NCBI GenBank assembly: GCA_020628165.1
Contig: JAHDFM010000008.1
Span: 2,247 to 66,246 of the forward strand
DNA: 64,000 bases
From: Bdellovibrionales bacterium
GTDB lineage: Bacteria > Bdellovibrionota > Bdellovibrionia > Bdellovibrionales > UBA1609
Direction: 5' to 3'
Part shown: positions 10,475-22,369 of the stretch, in pieces
Numbering within the stretch: the stretch's first letter is position 1
How the letters are laid out: each line of letters starts with the position of its first letter
Notes under the pieces: generated by a model
Databases searched by the model: none
The model's input: only the letters and a program-made list of their open reading frames with translations
What the model was told of the DNA's origin: nothing
Program-made: the position numbers and the translations under genes

Positions 10475-10792
10475 ATGTCAACAAGTCCAGTGACAGACAG
10501 TTCATTTGAGGAAGAAGTTTTAAATAGTGACAAATTAGTTCTAGTCGACTTTTGGGCTGAATGGTGTGGACCTTGTCGTGCATTAGCTCCAAAATTAGAA
10601 GAGCTCTCTAATGAAATGTCAGAAGTGAAGATTGTGAAAGTGAACACTGATGAAAATAAAGAATCGCCAGCTAAGTACGGTGTGCGCGGAATCCCTACAA
10701 TGATTCTATTTAAGAACGGCCAAGAGGTCGACCAAGTTGTAGGTAATCAGCCCATCGACAACATCAAAGCAATGATTGAGAAACACTCTTAA
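10475..10792 (+). CDS. trxA: Thioredoxin
   Basis: WAEWCGPCR active site, 105 aa, [11 protein letters not shown] motif. Confidence 0.96.
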
Positions 10793-10932: not shown

Positions 10933-12051
10933 TTAAAAAAGATATCTATTGTAACCCACAGAAGATATGAGTCCTAAACCTAACATGACTGTCATCATGC
11001 TTGAGCCACCGTATGAAAGCAGTGGTAGGGGCATTCCCACAATTGGTAATATGCCAATGACCATTCCAATATTAATGACAGTGTGTAAAAATAAAAATGA
11101 AGTGATACCAACTACTAAGAGTGCCCCAAATTTATCTCTAGCTTCTTGGCTAATTCGTAAACAGCTAAAAAACAGAAGGGTGAATAGACCTAAGGTAAAA
11201 ATACTTCCTATGAAGCCATGCTCTTCACTCAGCACGCTGTAAATAAAGTCAGAATGGCGTTCTGGTATGAATTCAAGCTGTGACTGTGTCCCTTTTCGAA
11301 AACCTTTGCCAAGCAATCGTCCACTGCCCACAGCCACCTTTGATTGAATGCTATTGTAACCTTTTCCTCGAGGGTCACTGCCTGGGTCGAGAAAAGTTTC
11401 TACGCGATCTCTTTGATATGGCTTCAAACCAAAGTTCCAAACAAGGGGTGCTGCCAAAATACCAACGATGAGACAAAAAATAAGAATACTCAGCCGCACT
11501 CGAATGAAAACAATGATGGAAAGGGCAATTCCAATGATCAATAGGGAGGTTCCTAAATCAGGCTGTTTTAATGTTAGCATAAACGGGCATAAAGTTATGA
11601 TTGCAGGCATAATGAGGTCTTTAACACTAAGCCCATGAGGGTAGCTCCGTTCACTGAAGTGTTTGGCAAGAACTAAGGCCACGGCCACTTTCGCCGTTTC
11701 GGATGGCTGCCACATAAATACACCTAAATCGATCCAGCGTTGGGCTCCTAGAATTGTCACACCAAAAAGTTTAACACAGACGAGTGCTACGATATGAAAA
11801 AAGTAAAATGGGTAAGCCAGTCGTTTAAAAAAATTGTAATCTAAGAAAGTGGCAGTAAAAAAAATAAACCAACCCACACTGACCCAAAGCAATTGTTTCC
11901 AAAAAAGTTGGGTGTTGTGATTGAGGTGCAAACTGTGAGTGGCACTGTAAAGGTTGATCAAGCCGACAAACATTAAAGCAAAAATAATCAATGCCAATTT
12001 GTAATTGAATTTTGAAATAGAGAAATTAGTTTTGATATTAATTTGGCTCAA
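10933..12051 (-). CDS. rodA: Peptidoglycan glycosyltransferase RodA (SEDS family)
   Basis: FtsW/RodA/SpoVE family 10-TM protein (QPSETAKV, GLPLPLLSYGGSS motifs). ATGA overlap with the upstream PBP2 gene. Confidence 0.9.
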   Translation of the reverse strand: MSQINIKTNFSISKFNYKLALIIFALMFVGLINLYSATHSLHLNHNTQLFWKQLLWVSVGWFIFFTATFLDYNFFKRLAYPFYFFHIVALVCVKLFGVTILGAQRWIDLGVFMWQPSETAKVAVALVLAKHFSERSYPHGLSVKDLIMPAIITLCPFMLTLKQPDLGTSLLIIGIALSIIVFIRVRLSILIFCLIVGILAAPLVWNFGLKPYQRDRVETFLDPGSDPRGKGYNSIQSKVAVGSGRLLGKGFRKGTQSQLEFIPERHSDFIYSVLSEEHGFIGSIFTLGLFTLLFFSCLRISQEARDKFGALLVVGITSFLFLHTVINIGMVIGILPIVGMPLPLLSYGGSSMMTVMLGLGLISSVGYNRYLF

Positions 12052-14009
12052 TGATTGAGGGCTCCTATTTTTTTGCCTTGTGTTTGTAAAAAGACATCCG
12101 GTTTGTACTTTTCTAAATAAGCAAGAACAATGTCTTTGAAGACTCCTGCGCCCCCAAGAGCCCCTGAACAGCCATGCTCTGCCAGCACGGCTATGGTGAT
12201 TTCTGGGTTTTTGTAAGGTGCAAAGCCAGCAAACCAGCCATGATGACGAAACTTGCGCGGTCGGTTTTTACATTTTTTATATATGTTCTGGGCAGAGAAC
12301 CTTTTAACTTGAGATGTTCCCGTTTTACCAGCCATCTCAAAATTTCTGATTTGATACCACTTGGCTGTACCCTTATCACCATGAAAGACATCTTTCATTC
12401 CCATTTTAACAGCTTTAAAATGTTTGGCTTTGATATGGTACTTTCTACTTGAATTTTGTTGAGTCAAGTCATCGATGAGCTCGGGTTGGTGAGTCTCGAG
12501 CTCATTGTTGTTGTGATCGAGAACTTTTTTTATGAGGTAAGGTTTATATATTTTCCCATCTTGAGCGATAACATTGTAGGCCTTGGCAATTTGCAATGCC
12601 GTGGTTTCAACATAACTTTGACCAATAGCTGAAAGAATGGTTTCTCCCGGAGTCCACACTTCACCAAACGTTTTTTTCTTCCATTTTTTTGATGGCATAA
12701 TGCCTCTAGATTCATAGCCAATATTGAGGTTGGTTTTTTCGCCCAAACCAAAAAGTTTTGAGTAGTTGTGGATGCGATCAATTCCTAAGGTTTGTCCAAC
12801 TTTATAAAAAAAGACATTGCTGGAAGCTTCGATGGCTTGCTTAACGTTGATGTGACCGTGACCTTCTCGGTGGGAGTCATGATAAATTCCCTTGCCTAAT
12901 TTGAAGCTGCCAGGAGCGTGAAGCTTTGTGTATTCACTGATAATTTTTTCTTGCAGGGCTGCAAGTGCAATGATGGGTTTAAAGGTCGAGCCAGGTGGAA
13001 ACGGGTCTTGGATCACTCGATTGCGCAAAGGGCGGTCAGGGTTGTTGGTCAGGGCTGACCATTCTTTCACAGAAATTCCAGTGGTGAAGTTGTTGGGGTC
13101 AAAAGCTGGGGCACTGACCCACGCAAGGATTTCACCCGTGTTTTTTAACACAACGATACTGCCAACTCGGTCACCCAGCCAGTCCTCTCGTTGGAACGCT
13201 TTGTAGGCGGCTTCTTGAATGTCTTTATCTATTGTGAGCACAAGCGATTTGCCAGGTGTGGGTGGTTGAGGCTTAATGCTTAAGAACTTACTTGAGCTTT
13301 TGTATGTTTTGCGACCTCTGGCATCCACTTCGATGAACTCTGCACCATTGTAGCCTTTAAGGACAGGCTCAAGTGAAAGCTCAATACCTTTTTTGCCGAC
13401 AAGGTCTCCGCGTTCAAAATTGTGCTCAGGGTGTTTTTTAGAGAGCTTTATGATCTCTGACTTTGAGATAGGGCGCACAAAGCCAAACAGTTGCGCCCCA
13501 TTCGTTTTTAAATTGTATTTGCGCAATAATGTTTTTTCAATTTCAAGGCCCGTGTATTGCACACGCAATCGTTTTAATTTAAACACTTCTTCGCGTGACA
13601 AGTTCTTTTTTATAATAACTGGTAGGAAGGGACCATTACGACGTTTGCCTTTCACGACCTTTTCTTTGATCTGATAGGCGTCCATTTCTAAGATAGGAGC
13701 AATTGTTTCACTCAAGTGATCAAGTTTTTTAGTGTATTGGGGCGATATAGTGACAACATATCCAGGGTAATTGTTAACGAGTGTTCTGTTTTCAGTGTCA
13801 TAAATGACTCCTCGGGGAGCCAGTATTTTGGTTTTTTTAAGACTGTTTCTGTCAGAAAAAGTTTTGAGTTCATCACCTGTGGTGATTTGTAAATGCCAAA
13901 GTCGAAAGGCAATGAGGCTCATACTGAAGATGACAAGTAGGTAGACCAGCTTATAACTGACATTATTTTTTTTAGTGAAGTATTTGTCTTCGTTAAATGC
14001 GCCAGCCAT
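12048..14009 (-). CDS. mrdA: Penicillin-binding protein 2 (elongasome transpeptidase)
   Basis: N-terminal anchor + PBP dimerisation domain + transpeptidase motifs STFK, SSN and KTGT. Sits between mreD and rodA. Confidence 0.93.
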   Translation of the reverse strand: MAGAFNEDKYFTKKNNVSYKLVYLLVIFSMSLIAFRLWHLQITTGDELKTFSDRNSLKKTKILAPRGVIYDTENRTLVNNYPGYVVTISPQYTKKLDHLSETIAPILEMDAYQIKEKVVKGKRRNGPFLPVIIKKNLSREEVFKLKRLRVQYTGLEIEKTLLRKYNLKTNGAQLFGFVRPISKSEIIKLSKKHPEHNFERGDLVGKKGIELSLEPVLKGYNGAEFIEVDARGRKTYKSSSKFLSIKPQPPTPGKSLVLTIDKDIQEAAYKAFQREDWLGDRVGSIVVLKNTGEILAWVSAPAFDPNNFTTGISVKEWSALTNNPDRPLRNRVIQDPFPPGSTFKPIIALAALQEKIISEYTKLHAPGSFKLGKGIYHDSHREGHGHINVKQAIEASSNVFFYKVGQTLGIDRIHNYSKLFGLGEKTNLNIGYESRGIMPSKKWKKKTFGEVWTPGETILSAIGQSYVETTALQIAKAYNVIAQDGKIYKPYLIKKVLDHNNNELETHQPELIDDLTQQNSSRKYHIKAKHFKAVKMGMKDVFHGDKGTAKWYQIRNFEMAGKTGTSQVKRFSAQNIYKKCKNRPRKFRHHGWFAGFAPYKNPEITIAVLAEHGCSGALGGAGVFKDIVLAYLEKYKPDVFLQTQGKKIGALNH

Positions 14010-14012
14010 TAA

Positions 14013-14543
14013 TTAAACCCCCACTTCTCTTGGCCACTTTTTAGACATGACTTGGTCAAACCAAATATAAAAGTGGTAGAGTGAGATAGATAATAAAAAT
14101 GTGATCATACCACTGATAAACCAATTTAAATATTCAAATTGATGTATTGGGTTGAGTTCTATCAACTGTGATGCACAAAAGTGAATGATCGGAAATATCA
14201 GAGTCATAAAAAAAGTAACAAAAGCCAAATAAATAGGTCTTTGTATGATAAAGCGTGAGCGAATCAGCAGGAGCGCAAAAGCAAGGCTTGAGTTACATAA
14301 AATAAATAGGCCTAAAGGAATTGAAGTGAAAGGGGCAGCAATAAAACTAATAACGTAAACAGACAAAATAAATTCAAAGAGGTTGCGATAGAAGCAAGTA
14401 AAAACAATCAAGGTGATCCACAAGGATGGGTTTGGGGCTTGAGTAAAAAGCTGCATCCACACACTTCCCTGCAGAGACATCAGGCAAATGAAGGCTAAAA
14501 AAAATAAGATAAAATGCAAGCCATTGTTAATCAGTGATTTCAT
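14013..14543 (-). CDS. mreD: Rod shape-determining protein MreD
   Basis: Small polytopic membrane protein between mreC and mrdA. Start moved to Met at 14543 (MKSLINNGLHF...), which still overlaps the mreC stop by 17 nt. Confidence 0.75.
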   Translation of the reverse strand: MKSLINNGLHFILFFLAFICLMSLQGSVWMQLFTQAPNPSLWITLIVFTCFYRNLFEFILSVYVISFIAAPFTSIPLGLFILCNSSLAFALLLIRSRFIIQRPIYLAFVTFFMTLIFPIIHFCASQLIELNPIHQFEYLNWFISGMITFLLSISLYHFYIWFDQVMSKKWPREVGV

Positions 14544-15507
14544 TGTTATCGCCTGAGTCCTGGTTTTTAAGTTGTATGTATTTTTCTTGAATGGTTTTGA
14601 GAGCCTCTTCCTCTGTCGACTCAACAGGCTCTAAATCGGCATTATTTGTAGCCAGAATAATAAAAAGTTCTTCTGTGATGTAGGGGTTGATTGCAGGTTT
14701 AATCAGTAAATGATCGATAGAGTTTTGTGCGCCTTTTTTGATTTCAACAATCTTACCAACGGGAAAACCTTTTGGGAAAACGTTGTAAAGTCCACTGGTC
14801 ACGATGTTGTCATTGATTTTAATCTCACTGTCTTGGTCAATTTGATTGATGCGACTGAAGTTTTTTGAATGGCCTTCGAGCAGCCCTCTTGCTCGGGTTC
14901 TTTGTACGATCACATCTGCTACAAAGTAACGGTCTGTGATGAGTAAAATTTTAGCTGTTTTGGGCAGACTTTCAACAACATACCCTACAATCCCTCCAGG
15001 AGTGATTGCCGCCATGTTTTTTTCAATTCCGTGTTTGTAACCTTTATCAATCACTAAGGCACTTTGATCGGGAAGGACGGAGCTTGCGATCACTTTAGCG
15101 CCGAGCAGATCCATATTGGTGTTTTTCTTAAAACTTAGAAGCTTATTGAGTCTTTGATTTTCAAGCTTTAGCTCAGACAAAGCACCGAGCTGTGCTTTGA
15201 GCTCTTCATTTTTTTTAATTAAAAATTTATTTTCTTTTTTGGTTCCAATAAGGTTGAGATAAGTTTGAGTGGTTCCCCGAACTCCTGAACTGAGCTTGTA
15301 ATAAGAGCGTTGGATGCCTTGACTTATGATCATAAAGGGGAGAATGCTCCAATGCGACTCTTGAGGGTTATGTTCAATGTTAGCTGATATAAGTGGAACA
15401 ATCACAATAAAGACAAAGATAATAATTTTTTTATAATCAATGCTGAAATTGAACAAAATAGGGTCCTTGTTGACAGTGAGTTGAAGTGAACAGTGGGTGT
15501 TTCTCAA
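14527..15507 (-). CDS. mreC: Rod shape-determining protein MreC
   Basis: N-terminal TM, coiled coil (LKAQLGALSELKLENQRLNKLL), then MreC beta-barrel domains (VIASSVLPDQSALVIDKG..., VVTSGLYNVFPKGFPVGKIV). Confidence 0.88.
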   Translation of the reverse strand: MRNTHCSLQLTVNKDPILFNFSIDYKKIIIFVFIVIVPLISANIEHNPQESHWSILPFMIISQGIQRSYYKLSSGVRGTTQTYLNLIGTKKENKFLIKKNEELKAQLGALSELKLENQRLNKLLSFKKNTNMDLLGAKVIASSVLPDQSALVIDKGYKHGIEKNMAAITPGGIVGYVVESLPKTAKILLITDRYFVADVIVQRTRARGLLEGHSKNFSRINQIDQDSEIKINDNIVTSGLYNVFPKGFPVGKIVEIKKGAQNSIDHLLIKPAINPYITEELFIILATNNADLEPVESTEEEALKTIQEKYIQLKNQDSGDNNEITD

Positions 15508-15732
15508 TATTGCGAGGACACTCTTAAATTAATACAAACATCAAGCCGTAGAAAACCGTTGTCGTTGTAAAATTTTAAGTCCATGTTCGTCTGTTATGGT
15601 TTTAATTTAGAAATAAATAATATATGCGTCAAGTTACCGACGAAATTGAAATTATTTAAATTGACTCAGTAAATTGACCCATCATAAAACAGGGCTTAAC
15701 ATCATACTTTTAAAGAGTTATCGGGAGATAAA

Positions 15733-17256
15733 ATGTTAGATAAATTGAGAGATCCAACCAAAAATAAAAGCAGTGTAAAACGTTTTTTCTACTTGATTCT
15801 TTTTGCCGCGATCATACTCACTTTTGTATTCATGACTGGCACTGGGGCACCTGTTGGTGGAGCTGCTGGAGGGATTGCTGCTGTGGTTAACGGAGAGGTT
15901 ATCAGTTTTAGAGACTTTTCAACCACTTTTAGCCGCCAGGAAAGCCAAATGCAGCAAAGTATGAAGAACATTCCTGCTGCGATGCGTAGTATGTACGAGA
16001 GTCAATTTGGTACGCGCGAGCAAAGAGCTCAGAGAGTGCTTGAGCAAATGATTCAAAATAAATTGGCGACTCAACTTGCAGGTGATTCTGGTGTATTTGT
16101 AAGTGACAAAGAAGTGCTAACTGAAATTTCTAAAATGGATGTTTTTCAAGAGAATGGTCAATTCAAAGCCTCACGATACCATCAGTTATTGCAAGCGAAT
16201 CAGTTAAGTCCCGCAAAATTTGAAGATAACATTCGAGGGGACATTGCGTTTTCTCGTTTTCAACGCCTTTTCTTAAATTCAGTCAAAGCCACAAATGCCG
16301 ATGTTGAGTTAGACAAGTATGCGAATAGTCAAAAAGTCAGTGTTGATTTTATCGAGGTCTCTCAAGATGCGCTGAAAAAAGGCATGAAAGTAGATGCTGG
16401 TCAGCTTGGAGATTTTAAGTCGAAGCAAATGGATAAGATCAAAACCTACTACAACGACAATAAATCTCAATACACTCTGCCTGAAAAAGTGGCTGTAAGT
16501 CACATCCTTATAAAAACTAAGTCTCAAAGTGATGAAGATTACAAAGCTGCTTTAGATAAAATTACAGACATCAGAAAACAAATCACAGATTCCAATTTTG
16601 CCGATCTTGCTGAGAAGTATAGTGAGGACACTGGCAGTAAAGTTAAGGGCGGTTCTCTTGGTGAAGTCGATAAAAATGTCAGTTTTGTTGAGCCATTTAA
16701 AAAAGCTGTGTTTTCACTGAAAGTTGGAGAGCTTTCCCAACCGGTAAAAACTCGCTTCGGTTATCATGTGATCAAAGTCACTGGTAAGAAAGACGGACGT
16801 GTTAAGCCTCTTGCTGAAGTGACTGATGAAATTGCTAAAAAATTCATTATTGATGAAAATGTTAAAAAAGATATGGACGCACTAATGAAGGGTGAAGACT
16901 CATCCCTAACCAAACTTAAAAAGCTACAAGCTGATTACGGGTTAAAATGGAAAAACACTGGTGAATTCAGTTTGTCTCAAAATCAAGTTCCACAGTTGGG
17001 AGATGCCAGTAAGATTTGGGAAACAGTATCAAAAGCATTGACCACTCAAGCAACTGAGATGGTTGAAAGTGGTGGGAAGTACTATCTTATTAAGGTGAAA
17101 GATTCAAAATTTGAAGCCGCTAAAAAAGATGAAAAACTTGAAGATAAAATCGACCAGCTCAGTGCTGAAAGAACAAATTTAGCTGTACAAGCTTGGGTTG
17201 ATAGTCAAAAAGACTCTGCATCTATTAAAAGAAACTTAAAGGTTTTTAACTTTTAA
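15733..17256 (+). CDS. ppiD: Periplasmic chaperone / peptidyl-prolyl isomerase, PpiD-like (SurA_N + parvulin)
   Basis: N-terminal membrane anchor, SurA_N-like region and a parvulin domain (VSHILIK...FADLAEKYSED..GSKVKGGSLGEV...FGYHVIKV). Confidence 0.85.
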   Translation: MLDKLRDPTKNKSSVKRFFYLILFAAIILTFVFMTGTGAPVGGAAGGIAAVVNGEVISFRDFSTTFSRQESQMQQSMKNIPAAMRSMYESQFGTREQRAQRVLEQMIQNKLATQLAGDSGVFVSDKEVLTEISKMDVFQENGQFKASRYHQLLQANQLSPAKFEDNIRGDIAFSRFQRLFLNSVKATNADVELDKYANSQKVSVDFIEVSQDALKKGMKVDAGQLGDFKSKQMDKIKTYYNDNKSQYTLPEKVAVSHILIKTKSQSDEDYKAALDKITDIRKQITDSNFADLAEKYSEDTGSKVKGGSLGEVDKNVSFVEPFKKAVFSLKVGELSQPVKTRFGYHVIKVTGKKDGRVKPLAEVTDEIAKKFIIDENVKKDMDALMKGEDSSLTKLKKLQADYGLKWKNTGEFSLSQNQVPQLGDASKIWETVSKALTTQATEMVESGGKYYLIKVKDSKFEAAKKDEKLEDKIDQLSAERTNLAVQAWVDSQKDSASIKRNLKVFNF

Positions 17257-17582
17257 GTGAAACTGTTTGGGCCGACACTAAGGCCCAATCATTGATTATA
17301 GTAAGAGTTAATTAATAAATATTAACTCTATTAAGTGCTAATGTGTTCTTTTCGTGCCACTCAATTGTGTTGTTTCTTGTGTCTCAATTTAAAATAAAAA
17401 TTTGATATATCTATCAATAAAAAAGGCTTAATTTTAAAGACTTTTATGGATTTAATAAATCTTTCAGATGGTTTAAAGCCTTTGTTTCATGTTGAGAAAA
17501 TAAATAGTTTGTGTTTACGGATTTAAGGCTTAAGTTTTTAGTCTAGGCCCCGATAAGTTTCAAAAGCTTGAGAGGTCCGTAC

Positions 17583-19493
17583 GTGAGAACTATTTGTGTA
17601 TTGTTATTATTATTGTTGTCGCTCCCTGTGTATTCTTTAGAATACGTTCCCGGTGAAGTTATTGTTAAAATGAAGCCATCCTCTGGCCAGCAAAATTCTA
17701 TACAAAATTTTATAAGTAAAGTGAGCACTGATCGCAAGATGGAGTTAAAGCAAGCGTTCAAAGATATGAACATGTACCACTATAAAATTGACGATCAAGA
17801 TTCTGTCCACAACGCTATTAGTGATTTAGAAATGGACCCAGATGTAGAGTTTGTGGAACCAAACTATATTGTTAGAAAGGCGACCGTCTTTGATAATCAG
17901 TTGCAGTCAATGACGCCAGAAGAAGTGGCTTTAATGAAAGCAACGGCACTGAGCACACAAACATCTGACATTGGTTTACCGATCACACCTTCGGGACGGC
18001 AAAACTTAGGGGAGCAAGGTGAGAACTCAGTCTCTTCCAAGGTCACTGCACTTTCATTTGTGCCAGTGGTTGCCGTAGTGGATACCGGCTTAGATATCAA
18101 TCACGATGTGTTTGTTGATAGCGGAGCGATTTGGACAAACTCAGCAGAAATCCCAAGTAACGGCATAGATGATGACGGAAACGGTTACATTGATGATGTG
18201 AATGGGTGGAACTTTGTTTCTAAGAACGGAAATATGTTAGATGATGAAGGGCACGGCACTCACGTTTCTGGTACAGTTTTAAGTGCGGGTATGGATATTT
18301 TCACAACCCCCTATGAAGCTTCGCCGATGAAAATTATGCCACTAAAATTTTTAGATCACACAGGAAGTGGAAAAACATCTGACGCCATTTCTGCTATTTA
18401 TTATGCTGTTAATAATGGCGCGCACATTATCAATAACTCTTGGGGAGGGGCTGGTTACAGTGCATCCCTTCACGAAGCCATTGCTTACAGTTACTTTAAT
18501 GAAGTGTCTTTCACTGCAGCGGCAGGTAACTCTGGCTCGAACAATGACAGTTCACCTATGTACCCTGCAAGCTATGACGTCCCACATTTGATGGCCGTGG
18601 CAGCGACAACATCTCTAGATGATTTAGCCTCATTTTCAAATTATGGGTACGCATCTGTAGATTTAGGTAGTCCTGGAGTTTTCATTTTAAGTACAATCCC
18701 GTGTTCAGGTGGAACATGCGGGCATGGGACTTCTTCGGGAACCAGTATGGCAACGCCTTTTGTTTCTGGAATTGCTGCGATGATGTTAATAGAAGCTCCA
18801 ACTATGTTGCCATATCAGATTAAGGAAATTATTTTTGGTGAATCAGATTATATTGCTGACTTAGACAACTTGATCAATACCGAAAGTCGTATCAACGGAA
18901 CAGCATCAGTTACCAATGCTTCAACGGCATCGATTGATGCAACCCAACCAGATTACACTTTCACTCCTCTACGGACCCTAGCAAGTTCTAGCTCTGGTGG
19001 TGGTTGTGGATTGGTCAAAAATATGTATCAACAACAACAACCAAAAGCTGGTGGTGGCAACGGTGGTGCTAAGAGTACGAAAATCCCATGGTCAGTTTTT
19101 ATGATCTTAGGTTTGTTTGGTTTGCCATTTGCGATTGCCCAGTTTATGAAAAAGAAGTCTGTATCAACACAAGTTAACCGCAGAAAGCATGAGCGCTTTA
19201 AAATGGAGTCTACGGTGTCGATGGAAATTGGCGGTAAAAAAGTCAATGGACATGTCAACTGCATATCACAAGGTGGTGTGCGCATGAACACCCAAGAGCT
19301 CCTTGAAAAAGGCGGCGTTATCAAGATGGTGATTTCAAGTCCTGATGGGTCAGAGCAAATTGAAGTGAGTGGCCAGATTGTATGGGAGAGTGATAAACAA
19401 TCTTATGGTGTTCAGTTTAAAAATGTTGCTGATGAAGTAAGTGATCAAATTGAAAATTGGACCAAAGATTTATCTCCAGAACCTTATAAATAA
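17583..19493 (+). CDS. Subtilisin-family (S8) serine protease with I9 propeptide, one TM helix and a C-terminal PilZ domain
   Basis: Start set at GTG 17583, 7 nt after GAGAGG (the ORF track opens at TTG 17568). Triad motifs VAVVDTGLD, HGTHVSG and GTSMATPFVSG. TM at 19083-19148. PilZ RRKHER at 19179-19196 and NCISQGG at 19257-19277. Confidence 0.9.
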   Translation: MRTICVLLLLLLSLPVYSLEYVPGEVIVKMKPSSGQQNSIQNFISKVSTDRKMELKQAFKDMNMYHYKIDDQDSVHNAISDLEMDPDVEFVEPNYIVRKATVFDNQLQSMTPEEVALMKATALSTQTSDIGLPITPSGRQNLGEQGENSVSSKVTALSFVPVVAVVDTGLDINHDVFVDSGAIWTNSAEIPSNGIDDDGNGYIDDVNGWNFVSKNGNMLDDEGHGTHVSGTVLSAGMDIFTTPYEASPMKIMPLKFLDHTGSGKTSDAISAIYYAVNNGAHIINNSWGGAGYSASLHEAIAYSYFNEVSFTAAAGNSGSNNDSSPMYPASYDVPHLMAVAATTSLDDLASFSNYGYASVDLGSPGVFILSTIPCSGGTCGHGTSSGTSMATPFVSGIAAMMLIEAPTMLPYQIKEIIFGESDYIADLDNLINTESRINGTASVTNASTASIDATQPDYTFTPLRTLASSSSGGGCGLVKNMYQQQQPKAGGGNGGAKSTKIPWSVFMILGLFGLPFAIAQFMKKKSVSTQVNRRKHERFKMESTVSMEIGGKKVNGHVNCISQGGVRMNTQELLEKGGVIKMVISSPDGSEQIEVSGQIVWESDKQSYGVQFKNVADEVSDQIENWTKDLSPEPYK

Positions 19494-19714
19494 ATAATTT
19501 TTTACATATTAGAAAAATCAATTGTCGATGAGTGTGTTCAGCTCATCGATAAAACGTCTTGGCCCAGGAAACTCTTTCCTAGAGATAGATCTAAGTGTTG
19601 ACTTCACTTTTGTCGCAAATTAATTCATACTGCCCCTTATTACAGACTTAAGTTCAATAGCAATCAAATATTGCGTTTTAATATCAAGCCTTCTCTATTA
19701 CCATAGCTATAGTT

Positions 19715-22369
19715 ATGTCTACTCGAAAGATGAACTTAGTTATCTTAATTGCGAGTCTCTTTTTGTTTCATGTCAGTTGTGGTGGCGGTTTTAGCCCGAA
19801 AGGAACAGGCTCCGGCGGAGGTGGGTCGACAGCACCAGCGGTTTCTTTCCAGTGGGATTTTGATTTAGTATCTAACTACAACCTAACAGAAGGCGAAGTT
19901 GAAGTGAGCGGCGGACAGGCTCGTGTGCTTTTACAGAGTTTCGAAATTGACGATGCAGCAGACTTTGGCGGCGGTACATTGATAGGCGCAGTTTATGATG
20001 GTGTGACATCAAATTTAACTATCGACTCGGGCTCTGCCACTAACGAACTCACAGCCAACAATTCACCCCAGTTCAGCGAACTAGTAGGTTACTGGACTTT
20101 TGAAGGCAATTTTAACGATTCTTCTACTGAGCTGAACAATGGCACGGCGGTGGGCGATGCGGTCGGTGACACAGCTGTTTTTAAAGTGGGTGCTGAGAGC
20201 TTGTTGCTCGATGGGGCTGGTGATTACATTACGGTTCCTGATGATGACAGCCTTGATTTAGACATGGCTGACCAGTTGACTCTATCAACTTGGATTAAGT
20301 ATCCCACTGTCGGCTCAACAGATCGTATCCTTGCAAAAGGATGTTTTGACGGAACTAATTGGGTCGACTTGTCTTACATGCTTAATAAAAACAATGATGA
20401 GTCCGTGAGCTTTAGTATCTCAGCTGATGGTGTGACAATTGTTAATTTAAATTCTGGAATCACGCTCAGGCCCAATCTTTGGTACCACATAGCGAGCACT
20501 TATGACGGTGCTACAATGTCTATTTACATAAATGGGGAGTTAGTAAATACGGGAGCTCATACCGGCAATGTTTTTAACGGAGCTCAAGAACTCAATATTG
20601 GAACGCGTAGAGATGGTCCAGGCTGCGCTAGTTTCACTCAATATTTCGAAGGTAACATTGATGATGTTGCCATATGGAAGCAAAGTTTGACTGCCGATGA
20701 AGTGAGTCAGGTTTTTCATTTGCAAAAGCAAAGATACCACGCCATTTTCGAATCGGCTGTGATTGACTCAGGCTCGAGCCTATCGCCTTGGCCAAGACTG
20801 GCTTGGGAAACGCCGCGACCTTATTTTAAAGAATTCCCAGGAGACACCACGGGGGACGGCACTACAGAGAGTGAAAGCGTTGGCGGCAGGTATCCACTCG
20901 TAGCCGGTAGTGGTGGGGAAGGAATCAACAACAACAATATGAGCCAATTGATTATGTTGTTGCGACTTAATAATGAGGCTGGGCCATTTACAGGTGTTGC
21001 CGGTGAGATGGCCGATAGTTCTGGACAGACCAACGCTGCTAACGCCAGTGGTGGTTCAATCAACACAGAAAGCGCCATCTTTTATCAGGGAGTTTATGTC
21101 GATGGGTCCGCCATTCATATCGATGTGCCCGGATTTGTCTCGAATCCAGATTTTACTGATGCAAAAACCATTTCTTTTTGGCTTAAAATTGACCCAAACC
21201 AAGTAGACACAGTGGCAACAACCAATACCATTATTTTAGATGGTGACGGAACGAGAAGTTTAAAAATTGGTTACCACAACTCAACGGCATTGCCTGCTGA
21301 TATTGGTAAAGTGTTTTTAGAGGTTGACGACAGTGTGACCACACTCAGTTTAACTTCGACGTCACGAATTGATGACGGGAACTTTCATTTAGTGACGGCT
21401 GTGCACACGACCACTCCAGGTTTAGAATACATTCTTTACATTGACGGTGCTCCTGAAGCAAATATAGCCAACACCACCGTGGGAAGTTACGGCGGAGCTT
21501 ATACATTTAGTATTGGAGATGCGGTTGAGAATTTTTCAGGGGTCATTGATGAGGTAGCTGTGTGGGCTAGAGGTTTGCACGAAAAAGAAGTGGAGCAAGC
21601 GTATCGAAGAGGAGCTAACCGAGTGAAGTTCCTAGTGAAGAGTTGTGCAGATCCAGCCTGTATCTGCCAAGGTTTTGGTCCCGGTGGAAGTGCTACCGAT
21701 TGTGATGGGGATGGCAACTTAAATGGAGTCGACACCAGTGACGCTTTTTTTGCGACATGGTTAGGTGTTGATAATTCGAGCAGCAAACCATTTTCGGAAC
21801 TCGTGAACAACACAGCCATAAGCGCTAGTGGACAGGGGAGTGGCTTTGTCAATGTCGTTAGCCCTACTCTTGATTTTGCTGACTTTGCTGGAAGTGGTTT
21901 CACAGTTTCCAACAATCAGTACTTTCAATTTAAAATAGATTTAGAATCAGAAAATAATATTAGCTGTGACGGTGTCACATGCTTGCCTCAAGTCACAAAC
22001 GTTAGCATCGCAAGCAATAACTTTTTTGGTGGACCACAAGCTATCAGCGCAACAAACTCATTCTCATACGCAAGCACCGTGGTTGATATCAGTTTTAACG
22101 AAGTGGGTGGTGCTAACTGTAACTTTGAATATCAATTGTCTAATGACGATGGGGTTACCTGGTATTATTACAGCACCGGAAGTTCGTCTTGGATACTAGC
22201 GGCGGGACCAACAGACACATCTAATGAATCAGAAATTCGCTCAGGTATCAGTACATTTCACACAGTTCCCGGAACAAGAGATTTCACATTCAAAGCTTTT
22301 ATTGAATCTGTGGATACAACAACGAGTTGCACTCTTGATCAAGTCAGTGCCTCATTCACAGCTATATAA
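19715..22369 (+). CDS. Large lipoprotein with two LamG / concanavalin-A-like (Laminin_G_3) domains
   Basis: Lipobox FHVSCGG. Two copies of the LamG_3 pattern (LDGAGDYITVPDDDSLDL...LTLSTWIK...WYHIASTYDG...IYINGE...IDDVAIWKQSLTADEV, and a second ending IDEVAVWARGLHEKEV). Confidence 0.85.
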   Translation: MSTRKMNLVILIASLFLFHVSCGGGFSPKGTGSGGGGSTAPAVSFQWDFDLVSNYNLTEGEVEVSGGQARVLLQSFEIDDAADFGGGTLIGAVYDGVTSNLTIDSGSATNELTANNSPQFSELVGYWTFEGNFNDSSTELNNGTAVGDAVGDTAVFKVGAESLLLDGAGDYITVPDDDSLDLDMADQLTLSTWIKYPTVGSTDRILAKGCFDGTNWVDLSYMLNKNNDESVSFSISADGVTIVNLNSGITLRPNLWYHIASTYDGATMSIYINGELVNTGAHTGNVFNGAQELNIGTRRDGPGCASFTQYFEGNIDDVAIWKQSLTADEVSQVFHLQKQRYHAIFESAVIDSGSSLSPWPRLAWETPRPYFKEFPGDTTGDGTTESESVGGRYPLVAGSGGEGINNNNMSQLIMLLRLNNEAGPFTGVAGEMADSSGQTNAANASGGSINTESAIFYQGVYVDGSAIHIDVPGFVSNPDFTDAKTISFWLKIDPNQVDTVATTNTIILDGDGTRSLKIGYHNSTALPADIGKVFLEVDDSVTTLSLTSTSRIDDGNFHLVTAVHTTTPGLEYILYIDGAPEANIANTTVGSYGGAYTFSIGDAVENFSGVIDEVAVWARGLHEKEVEQAYRRGANRVKFLVKSCADPACICQGFGPGGSATDCDGDGNLNGVDTSDAFFATWLGVDNSSSKPFSELVNNTAISASGQGSGFVNVVSPTLDFADFAGSGFTVSNNQYFQFKIDLESENNISCDGVTCLPQVTNVSIASNNFFGGPQAISATNSFSYASTVVDISFNEVGGANCNFEYQLSNDDGVTWYYYSTGSSSWILAAGPTDTSNESEIRSGISTFHTVPGTRDFTFKAFIESVDTTTSCTLDQVSASFTAI

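Follow-up and report, generated by a model that had tools for sequence, protein, structure and literature searches.

The window, a stretch of 64,000 nucleotides of Bdellovibrionales DNA, carries a gene in which an exported subtilase is joined through one transmembrane (TM) helix to a PilZ domain. The explanation that best accounts for our data, and that we consider probable, is that this S8-TM-PilZ protein is the ortholog of Bd2545 and that its PilZ tail senses c-di-GMP to control the tethered protease. Among receptors of c-di-GMP, PilZ domains are the most widespread, and c-di-GMP is known to decide prey invasion in predatory bacteria. To our knowledge, the characterized outputs of PilZ domains do not include extracytoplasmic proteases; they comprise glycosyltransferases, motors, chemoreceptors, transcription factors, and chaperones. 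In Bdellovibrio bacteriovorus, 15 to 18 PilZ genes are predicted, and our literature search returned no functional study for any of these genes. The gene described here would offer a genetically simple, one-gene system for how a cytoplasmic nucleotide signal crosses a membrane through a single helix, and its protein probably belongs to the attack-phase programme, in which c-di-GMP acts.

A continuous reading frame restricted to Bdellovibrionales

The ORF listing gave a single unbroken ORF at 17568 to 19493 (+), which encodes 641 aa from a TTG codon. It bears out the one uninterrupted frame, 17583 to 19493 (+), described in an earlier reading of the letters alone (the sequence-only reading). 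Two starts are available, TTG at 17568 (641 aa) and GTG at 17583 (636 aa). The GTG is the better start, because GAGAGG lies 7 nt upstream of it and because a sigma28-type promoter would start transcription near the TTG. Residue numbers throughout follow the 641-aa frame. The features are as follows.

17530 to 17556, +, putative sigma28/FliA-type promoter: TTAAG (17530-17534), N15, CCGATAA (17550-17556); from sequence reading and a regex
17570 to 17575, +, ribosome-binding site GAGAGG, 7 nt 5' of the GTG; direct sequence reading
17583 to 19493, +, S8-TM-PilZ coding sequence: GTG start, 636 aa, stop TAA at 19491-19493
17583 to 17636, +, putative Sec signal peptide RTICVLLLLLLSLPVYS, cleavage predicted before LEYVPGE
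17637 to 17879, +, prodomain (fervidolysin N-pro/I9-like), residues 24-104, PF22148
18048 to 18932, +, S8 catalytic domain, residues ~161-455, PF00082, with D172, H229, N321, and S393
18933 to 19022, +, conserved periplasmic juxtamembrane element QPxY...RxLASS..GGGC480G(L/T/M)V
19023 to 19082, +, Gly/Gln-rich, low-complexity, variable tether; pLDDT <50 at residues 494-502, pairwise identity 0.27
19083 to 19148, +, single TM helix IPWSVFMILGLFGLPFAIAQFM, residues 506-527, then basic KKK at 19149-19157
19176 to 19463, +, cytoplasmic PilZ domain, residues 537-632, PF07238
19182 to 19196, +, RxxxR motif, R539-R543, within the PilZ domain
19260 to 19277, +, variant second PilZ motif C565-I-S567-Q-G569-G570, within the PilZ domain

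To evaluate the spread of this architecture, we used 120 homologs, each from an independent protein cluster, drawn from the assemblies of NCBI, ENA, JGI, and Logan. PF22148, PF00082, and PF07238 occurred together in all of these best 120 database matches, at 45 to 67% identity. A full-length alignment search returned matches in ~50 species genomes, all of them Bdellovibrionales, and relatives outside the order end after the protease. The survey of domain architecture that the sequence-only reading had proposed gave a family restricted to Bdellovibrionales; that reading had envisaged a predatory or surface-associated bacterium, and the host is a member of this predatory order. The family was found in every sampled lineage of Bdellovibrionales, where the S8-TM-PilZ gene belongs to the core and is present in single copy. 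In an exhaustive profile search, the linker, TM helix, and PilZ unit was confined to S8-PilZ proteins of ~600 to 680 aa or fragments.

The sequence-only reading had also raised the possibility that the fusion is spurious, a protease gene and a distinct pilZ gene having been run together by faulty assembly or a frameshift. We found nothing in favour of this reading and give it practically no credence. It is refuted because the fusion is conserved across relatives: the same continuous ORF recurs in the 120 independent clusters and ~50 genomes, the fusion is seen in the complete genomes of B. bacteriovorus Bd16, Bdellovibrio sp. HCB337, and Pseudobdellovibrio sp. HCB154, and the linker and TM segment between both domains is itself conserved.

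A zymogen-type subtilase anchored in the inner membrane

Pfam scans placed an N-terminal prodomain (PF22148), Peptidase_S8, and PilZ above threshold, in the order claimed beforehand. At the N terminus, a hydrophobic stretch (residues 9-27; Kyte-Doolittle 2.14) supports the putative signal peptide, and the family consensus around the putative cleavage site is A-x-A followed by Q-x-YVPGE. The next segment had been called an I9-type propeptide. A prodomain is indeed present, matching Fervidolysin_NPro-like (PF22148) at residues 24-99 (E=1.2e-9, 38.8 bits versus a cut-off of 21), whereas the Inhibitor_I9 profile itself stayed below threshold (14.5 versus 21.2 bits). The AF2 model of this region had a pLDDT of 86 to 97, and its Foldseek matches were pro-subtilisin structures.

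The catalytic domain matched Peptidase_S8 (PF00082) at residues 166-423 (E=2.7e-41, 142.2 bits versus a cut-off of 21.8). The complete triad that had been proposed was read directly from the codons for D172 (18081-18083), H229 (18252-18254), and S393 (18744-18746), with N321 as the oxyanion residue. Across the 120 homologs, the triad in D/H/S order (DTG, HGTH, GTSMA) and the oxyanion Asn are invariant; an acidic loop in the domain, DDDGNGYIDD, is also invariant. Among solved structures, the best Foldseek match was deseasin MCP-01 (3vv3; 41% identity, E=1.1e-28). Judged from its sequence, the protein has an intact S8 subtilase with prodomain and secretion signal, and proteolysis is predicted.

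A single hydrophobic helix at 19083-19148 followed by KKK had been described, and these coordinates are right. The full-length AF2 model (pLDDT 84.9) showed a helix at residues 508-533 with the PilZ barrel separate from the rest, and the Kyte-Doolittle value of the TM segment was 1.96. The helix is poorly conserved (pairwise identity 0.32), and its Pro520 is near-invariant (115/120). Averaged over the 120 sequences, K+R numbered 1.4 before and 6.3 after the helix, a bias that places the PilZ domain in the cytoplasm and agrees with the positive-inside topology proposed earlier. The protein is thus predicted to be a type-I (N-out, C-in) inner-membrane protein, composed of a prodomain and S8 zymogen exported into the periplasm, a TM helix, and a cytoplasmic PilZ barrel of ~100 residues. 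The protease would be held at the inner membrane by this single helix and a linker of ~50 residues.

An invariant cysteine in the juxtamembrane element

Between the catalytic domain and the variable tether lies an element that gave no Pfam or NCBIfam match, with a mean pairwise identity (0.54) equal to that of the prodomain. C480 and G481 are present in 120/120 sequences and R469 in 118/120, and C480 is the sole invariant Cys of the family in these 120 sequences. A TM helix and a basic cluster come after the GGGCG motif, and together these traits would fit the derivation of the whole segment from a Cys-type sorting tag of the MYXO-CTERM/JDVT-CTERM class, with processing at or near Cys480. An S8 relative from a Nitrospirae MAG has a similar C terminus (...SGGGGGCS, 16 aa, a TM helix, and RRKK), and its tail matched JDVT-CTERM weakly (13.8 to 15.4 bits versus a cut-off of 27). 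We nonetheless regard this derivation as quite improbable. The segment in this protein and four homologous segments had no NCBIfam or Pfam match even at E<=10, the Cys is separated from the helix by 25 to 30 residues instead of lying next to it, and a further 114 residues follow the helix, so that the tag would not stand at the extreme C terminus. Other proteins with a GGGCG-TM-basic tail were absent from the window and from ten long related loci, and we know of no sorting tag that is followed by a folded domain. What the segment shares with sorting tags is the formal pattern only, in which a Gly-Cys motif precedes a TM helix and a basic cluster. Under a sorting-tag origin, cleavage or lipid modification at or near Cys480 would release or re-anchor the protease, and it is this processing step, not catalysis, that would be controlled by the remaining TM-PilZ part or by the occupancy of PilZ.

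A canonical PilZ fold with a variant second motif

The C-terminal domain matched Pfam PilZ (PF07238) at residues 537-632 (E=1e-16, 61.6 bits versus a cut-off of 22.5); scored in isolation, the tail reached 66.3 bits, and the match spanned profile positions 1-100 of 102. No second PilZ domain was found within the 64-kb window, where the family HMM finds only this ORF. A PilZ-only AF2 model (pLDDT 85.5) formed a six-strand barrel with a C-terminal helix at 95-105. In Foldseek, its top matches were c-di-GMP-bound Alg44 (4rt0), MotI, YcgR, MapZ, PlzD, and BcsA, with TM-scores of 0.68 to 0.74 to Alg44, MapZ, YcgR, and MotI. Hence the structural comparison with PilZ barrels suggested by the sequence-only reading returned a canonical PilZ fold, at TM-scores of ~0.7. 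The conservation of the barrel matches that of the protease domain (mean identity, 0.60 versus 0.63).

Both PilZ signatures had been located correctly, RRKHER at 19179-19196 and NCISQGG at 19257-19277, the latter with Cys at the D/N position. R539 and R543 are present in 120/120 homologs, and 108/120 have R or K just before the motif. In the hSxxG part, I566 is conserved in 112, S567 in 118, and G569 and G570 each in all 120 sequences. The D/N position of [D/N]hSxxG is occupied by Ser in 70, Thr in 43, and Cys, as in this protein, in 7 of the 120; a canonical D or N at this first position of the motif was found in 0/120.

Lack of the D/N residue in all 120 homologs would also fit a PilZ tail that is a ligand-independent interaction or anchoring module, like the eponymous PilZ proteins PA2960 and XC1028, and that positions the protease without sensing c-di-GMP. 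The sites envisaged would be, for example, the pole or a place beside a machine such as pili or flagella. Consistent with such a module, by sequence alone, two Xanthomonas PilZ proteins of the non-binding kind, 3dsg and 3cnr, are the closest solved relatives (E ~0.003-0.01), a match confined to the region after RxxxR; the nearest NCBIfam model to the PilZ domain is TIGR02266, below its cut-off; and PilZ proteins are known to interact through their C-terminal helix (bioRxiv 10.1101/814665). On the other hand, RxxxR is invariant across sequences that are only ~45% identical, whereas non-binding PilZ proteins have lost RxxxR (bioRxiv 10.1101/814665). Furthermore, the fold is nearer to ligand-bound canonical PilZ domains than to the truncated Xanthomonas type, and PA2989, a PilZ protein with Ser at the D/N position, was reported to bind c-di-GMP (bioRxiv 10.1101/814665). 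Taken together, we consider an anchoring role without ligand unlikely.

Relationship to Bd2545 and probable expression in the attack phase

By architecture, this gene is assigned as the ortholog of B. bacteriovorus HD100 Bd2545. The copy in strain Bd16 encodes 628 aa with the same prodomain-S8-GGGCG-TM-PilZ layout and ~41% identity to the protein described here, and the Bd2545 gene has the same length as the Bd16 copy (1887 bp). The second motif of the Bd16/Bd2545 type reads N-T-I-S-E-G-G, with Thr at the D/N position where this protein has Cys. The neighbours also differ. In Bdellovibrio and Pseudobdellovibrio, PepA, a 471-aa ORF, and DUF502 lie upstream and MgtE and ABC transporters downstream, while this locus and MAGs of the same type carry rodA-mrdA-mreD-mreC/ppiD upstream. 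These two synteny types share nothing, and no neighbour gene is conserved across the order. No GGDEF, EAL, or CPBP gene is adjacent to the locus.

Bd2545 has been listed before. A "Subt-PilZ" protein of B. bacteriovorus, NP_969350.1, was tabulated in 2008 (Tripathi & Sowdhamini; PMC2605481) and is very probably Bd2545. In 2010 the gene was included in a count of pilZ genes (PMC2797640); it has also been labelled a subtilisin-like protease (PMC3627812), and a PrsW-PilZ protease fusion in Leptospira has been predicted bioinformatically (PMC12943098). For characterized S8-PilZ or protease-PilZ proteins, the literature yielded only catalogue or prediction mentions. The earlier statement that no protease-PilZ fusion has been characterized thus stands, whereas the architecture is not new, having been tabulated in 2008 (PMC2605481). 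For Bd2545 itself, the literature search found expression and Tn-seq data and no functional or biochemical study.

The putative promoter upstream of the gene resembles the Bdellovibrio attack-phase consensus TTAAG-N16-CCGATA (PMC3627812), and a FliA-type promoter is common to Bd2545 and this gene. Of 34 family loci, 27 had a CCGA[T/A]A box 5' of the ORF, versus 16% of background windows, and in loci having the box it lay mostly ~10 to 40 nt from the ORF start. A scan for sigma70 promoters and terminators over 17200-19800 gave nothing beyond shuffled expectation. Bd2545 is flagged with a FliA promoter in the attack-phase promoter table (Table S2; PMC3627812) and is one of three pilZ genes down-regulated upon exit from the attack phase (PMC2797640). 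Transcription of the gene from a FliA (sigma28)-type attack-phase promoter is accordingly putative in this organism, the attack-phase-specific expression data being those published for Bd2545.

In B. bacteriovorus 109J, the likely ortholog is EP01_RS08730. Tn-seq insertions in this locus, in a host-independent background, were neutral with either E. coli or V. cholerae as prey (W, 0.96 to 1.46, on a scale where ~1 is neutral and <0.1 a defect), which shows that predation in the laboratory does not require the likely ortholog.

Proposed mechanism

We infer c-di-GMP binding and c-di-GMP gating of proteolysis as follows. The PilZ tail would bind c-di-GMP via the invariant RxxxR and the hSxxG turn, and binding would alter the oligomeric state of the protein, its membrane location, or the conformation of the tether. 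During hunting and attachment to prey, the intracellular second-messenger level would then set where or whether the tethered periplasmic protease acts on envelope substrates. As another possibility, c-di-GMP binding may control shedding of the protease by cleavage of the linker.

Several observations stand against this mechanism. Conformational signalling through one poorly conserved TM helix is mechanistically hard, the D/N residue is lacking in 120/120 homologs, there is no conserved partner gene, and Tn-seq insertions in 109J are neutral. In addition, the sequence-nearest solved PilZ proteins, 3dsg and 3cnr, are non-binding.

A more specific version, which we put forward only tentatively, is an inside-out switch in which c-di-GMP on the (S/T/C)hSxxG PilZ domain would cause dimerization or processing at GGGCG, so that the otherwise tethered subtilase is activated or released during hunting and invasion; in the same doubtful proposal, the substrates would be those of the predator or prey envelope, and the ligand could conceivably be 3',3'-cGAMP, which Bdellovibrio also makes, in place of c-di-GMP. 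If true, it would be the first single-polypeptide link from a cyclic dinucleotide to extracytoplasmic proteolysis and the first C-terminal sorting-tag-like element under second-messenger control. Since the family occurs in all sampled lineages and Bd2545 is a tractable model ortholog, the c-di-GMP hypothesis is directly testable.

Comparison with known systems

The proposed protein would be a one-polypeptide functional analogue of LapD/LapG and of the PilZ-TM-periplasmic protein Alg44. Alg44, the Pseudomonas aeruginosa alginate co-polymerase and the paradigm of PilZ-mediated inside-out control, likewise combines a cytoplasmic PilZ domain, a single TM helix, and a periplasmic domain, and Alg44 (4rt0) is the top Foldseek match of our PilZ model (TM-score ~0.7, identity only ~17%). 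However, the order is reversed, with PilZ N-terminal in Alg44 and C-terminal here; the periplasmic part of Alg44 is MFP/HlyD-like and not a protease; and Alg44 has a canonical DxSxxG, whereas this family is without D/N.

In LapD/LapG of Pseudomonas fluorescens and relatives, cytoplasmic c-di-GMP occupancy governs the action of a periplasmic protease on envelope proteins (PMC10333796). That system consists of two proteins, whereas here there is one polypeptide. LapD, the receptor, is not a PilZ protein but combines a degenerate GGDEF-EAL module with a domain for periplasmic capture, and LapG is a soluble cysteine protease rather than a tethered S8 serine protease. Pfam and NCBIfam scans found no LapD/LapG-type domains in this protein, and the resemblance would be functional only, at the level of concept.

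The predicted PrsW-PilZ protein LIC_20173 of Leptospira interrogans also carries a PilZ domain at the C-terminal end of a membrane protease. As PrsW is an intramembrane metalloprotease of polytopic topology, its catalytic site lies in the membrane, not in the periplasm; moreover, the PilZ domain of LIC_20173 is non-canonical and its lineage unrelated. Finally, deseasin MCP-01 shares the prodomain and catalytic domain organization seen here. Deseasin and other secreted S8 proteases are released and have extracellular extensions such as PPC, PKD, or FN3, whereas this protein has what deseasin-type enzymes are without, both a TM helix and a cytoplasmic signalling domain.

Domain content of the S8-PilZ reading frame

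The protease and PilZ domains lie in a single uninterrupted ORF (17568..19493, forward strand; 641 aa counted from a TTG), and residue numbering throughout follows this 641-aa frame. The start in the sequence-only reading, 17583, is a GTG that yields a 636-aa product, which we favor because GAGAGG (17570-17575) and a σ28-type promoter (17530-17556) precede it. The ORF read bore out the uninterrupted frame of that reading (17583-19493), its motif coordinates all agree with the sequence, and both the S8 and PilZ domains score above the Pfam threshold on one product. The propeptide described as I9-type also scores above threshold, as Fervidolysin_NPro-like; Inhibitor_I9 itself is subthreshold.

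Pfam domains of the product
Residues 24-99, forward strand: Fervidolysin_NPro-like (PF22148), E=1.2e-9
Residues 166-423, forward strand: Peptidase_S8 (PF00082), E=2.7e-41
Residues 537-632, forward strand: PilZ (PF07238), E=1e-16; 61.6 bits (gathering score, 22.5)

The stop codon is followed after 32 nt by an 8-bp inverted repeat at 19525-19549 (TCGATGAG ... CTCATCGA); it lacks a T-run and is possibly a terminator-like hairpin, yet it was unflagged in a terminator scan.

Genuineness and spread of the fusion

The S8-PilZ fusion is genuine. We searched a 5.8-billion-protein collection and kept the best 120 matches for alignment; these share 45-67% identity across ~98% of the length, and PF22148, PF00082, and PF07238 occur together in 120/120. 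Sampling each species by a single genome, we found full-length matches in ~50 genomes, all Bdellovibrionales (Bdellovibrionaceae or Pseudobdellovibrionaceae), including the complete genomes of Bdellovibrio bacteriovorus Bd16, Bdellovibrio sp. HCB337, and Pseudobdellovibrio sp. HCB154; in every other phylum and one Bacteriovoracaceae MAG, the match ends at residues ~443-476 and covers the protease only. An assembly or frameshift artefact is refuted, as the 120 best matches and ~50 species genomes share the fusion. The phyletic survey suggested earlier thus places it order-wide in Bdellovibrionales, with protease-only matches elsewhere.

When 1.84 billion representatives were searched exhaustively with an HMM of the linker, TM, and PilZ segments, the complete unit turned up only in ~600-680-aa proteins or fragments, and the two matches that were domain-scanned both had the S8-PilZ architecture. 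The next-best PilZ relatives (P0198, P0200, P0202, and P0207; 720-1064 aa) combine a TonB_C domain at the C terminus with two or three copies of PilZ, apparently a second case of a cytoplasmic PilZ paired with a periplasmic domain. One MAG locus (L008) encodes, on the opposite strand and ~8 kb beyond its S8-PilZ gene in the downstream direction, another protein of this BLAST family, which may be an S8 paralog.

Protease and membrane topology

The catalytic triad D172/H229/S393 and the oxyanion residue N321 are invariant across the 120 aligned homologs. The full-length AF2 model (pLDDT 84.9) is confident for the prodomain and subtilase, whose nearest structures are deseasin MCP-01 (3vv3, 41% identity) and pro-subtilisins, followed by disorder (470-502), a helix (508-533), a separate beta-barrel (544-617), and a terminal helix (622-632). 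Because the protein has a cleaved N-terminal signal peptide and one further helix, protease and PilZ must lie on opposite sides of the membrane. The orientation proposed earlier, protease outside and PilZ inside, is supported by the charge bias: across the 120 proteins, K+R averages 1.4 over the 15 residues that precede the helix and 6.3 over the 15 that follow. These sequence features show a predicted exported, zymogen-type subtilase with complete catalytic residues, tethered N-out, C-in.

The S8 domain also contains an acidic loop, DDDGNGY(I/V)DD (18168-18197, residues 201-210), in which D201-D203, G206, D209, and D210 are invariant and N205 is conserved at 90% or more. The loop resembles a Ca2+-binding insertion, and its matches to metal-binding and acidic repeat models are weak.

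Ligand motifs of the PilZ domain

The modeled PilZ domain (pLDDT 85.5 alone) shows a canonical fold and a predicted cytoplasmic location. Its first structure matches are c-di-GMP-bound (Alg44 [4rt0/4rt1], 4xrn, MotI, YcgR, MapZ, PlzD, and BcsA), with TM-scores of ~0.6-0.74. Both PilZ signatures had been claimed. RxxxR is present in 120/120 homologs, and conservation in the second motif extends over h-S-x-x-G (I in 112/120, S in 118/120, G in 120/120); its D/N position, however, is S in 70, T in 43, and C in 7, with D or N in 0/120 and Cys in the window and close relatives. The variant genuinely deviates from the canonical sequence, but it is compatible with c-di-GMP binding, because PA2989, with Ser at this position, is reported to bind the ligand (Galperin and Chou, bioRxiv 10.1101/814665). 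That the domain is instead a ligand-independent interaction module is unlikely: the sequence-nearest solved PilZ proteins are non-binding Xanthomonas proteins, but these lack RxxxR and the match is confined to the region downstream of it. Binding of c-di-GMP by the tail is the probable reading. The barrel is about as conserved as the protease (mean pairwise identity, 0.60 versus 0.63), which argues for selection on the tail.

A conserved juxtamembrane GGGCG element

Between protease and helix, the homologs share QPxY...RxLASS..GGGC480G(L/T/M)V (18933-19022, residues 456-485; predicted periplasmic), an element that neither Pfam nor NCBIfam models match. Its C480 and G481 do not vary among the 120 homologs, in which no other cysteine is invariant; a variable Gly-rich tether follows, then the helix with a near-invariant Pro520. 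The pattern formally resembles Cys-type C-terminal sorting tags (Gly-Cys motif, helix, basic cluster), and we treat it as a lead rather than a classification. An S8 relative without PilZ in a Nitrospirae MAG (L067:1608-2864 and downstream; JAKAGF010000201.1) has an FN3-like extension and closes, at the extreme C terminus, with a tail of just this type: SGGGGGCS, then 16 aa, a TM helix, and RRKK. This tail, which matched JDVT-CTERM only below threshold, may represent the ancestral state onto which PilZ was added. A sorting-tag-like processing site whose use is governed by PilZ would be an alternative, which we consider improbable.

Gene neighborhood, promoter, and Bdellovibrio orthologs

Features around the S8-PilZ gene
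10475-10792: thioredoxin gene
Within 10933-17256, reverse strand: divergent rodA-mrdA(PBP2)-mreD-mreC cluster, upstream
15733-17256, forward strand: PpiD/SurA-like parvulin gene, directly upstream
17530-17556, forward strand: σ28/FliA-type promoter, TTAAG-N15-CCGATAA, with its 3' end 27 nt upstream of the GTG
19715-22369, forward strand: 884-aa protein with a lipoprotein-like N terminus (…LFHVSCGGG) and Laminin_G_3/pentaxin-like domains, directly downstream

The parvulin and mreC-mreD-mrdA-rodA arrangement recurs in ~15-23 related MAG loci and is replaced by another neighborhood in Bdellovibrio and Pseudobdellovibrio; the closest MAG (L001) alone has a homolog of the 884-aa protein beside its S8-PilZ gene. 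No conserved partner gene was found among the related-locus neighborhoods, no c-di-GMP-metabolizing gene is adjacent, and the 64-kb window holds no further PilZ domains.

The HD100 ortholog is Bd2545, listed as 'subtilisin like serine protease' (2454661-2456547, 1887 bp; Karunker et al., PMC3627812), equal in length to the Bd16 ortholog (L030:7920-9806). Bd2545 appears in the attack-phase-specific promoter table as monocistronic with FliA motif 'yes' (PMC3627812), and is one of three pilZ genes significantly downregulated on exit from attack phase (Lambert et al., PMC2797640). The window promoter agrees with the published attack-phase promoter of Bd2545 and resembles the attack-phase consensus TTAAG-N16-CCGATA (PMC3627812). 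Of 34 family loci, 27 have a CCGA[T/A]A box ahead of the ORF, mostly within ~10-40 nt of its start and with conserved flanks, against a background of 16% of 340-nt windows. Together with the Bd2545 data, these results indicate that the gene appears to belong to an attack-phase, σ28-type program across the order. In strain 109J, EP01_RS08730 ('subtilisin-like serine protease') is a likely ortholog by annotation and synteny: as in Bd16, its neighbors are MgtE and a pair of ABC transporters. It was scored neutral in Tn-seq for predation on E. coli and V. cholerae (W 0.96-1.46), where defects were defined as W<0.1.

Proposed mechanism and relation to known systems

We propose that the PilZ tail would bind c-di-GMP and, more tentatively, that occupancy could change protease oligomerization, placement, tether conformation, or shedding, coupling second-messenger state to periplasmic proteolysis. 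The earlier suggestion of novelty holds in part. Our literature search found no biochemical or genetic characterization of an S8-PilZ protein, and the sole other protease-PilZ fusion found was a predicted PrsW-PilZ in Leptospira (PMC12943098); the architecture itself, however, was tabulated in 2008 as 'Subt-PilZ' NP_969350.1 (PMC2605481), Bd2545 was counted among pilZ genes (PMC2797640), and JGI already annotates homologs as 'subtilisin family serine protease/Tfp pilus assembly protein PilZ'. New here are the order-wide conservation and Bdellovibrionales restriction of the fusion, the systematic replacement of D/N by S/T/C in the second PilZ motif, the invariant GGGCG element, and the conserved σ28-type promoter. 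The protein would be a PilZ-fused effector with a new output, an extracytoplasmic protease, and a tractable model organism makes the hypothesis testable. The nearest working analogies are Alg44, which combines PilZ, a TM helix, and a periplasmic domain, and LapD/LapG, in which a periplasmic protease is under c-di-GMP control, although S8-PilZ belongs to neither family.
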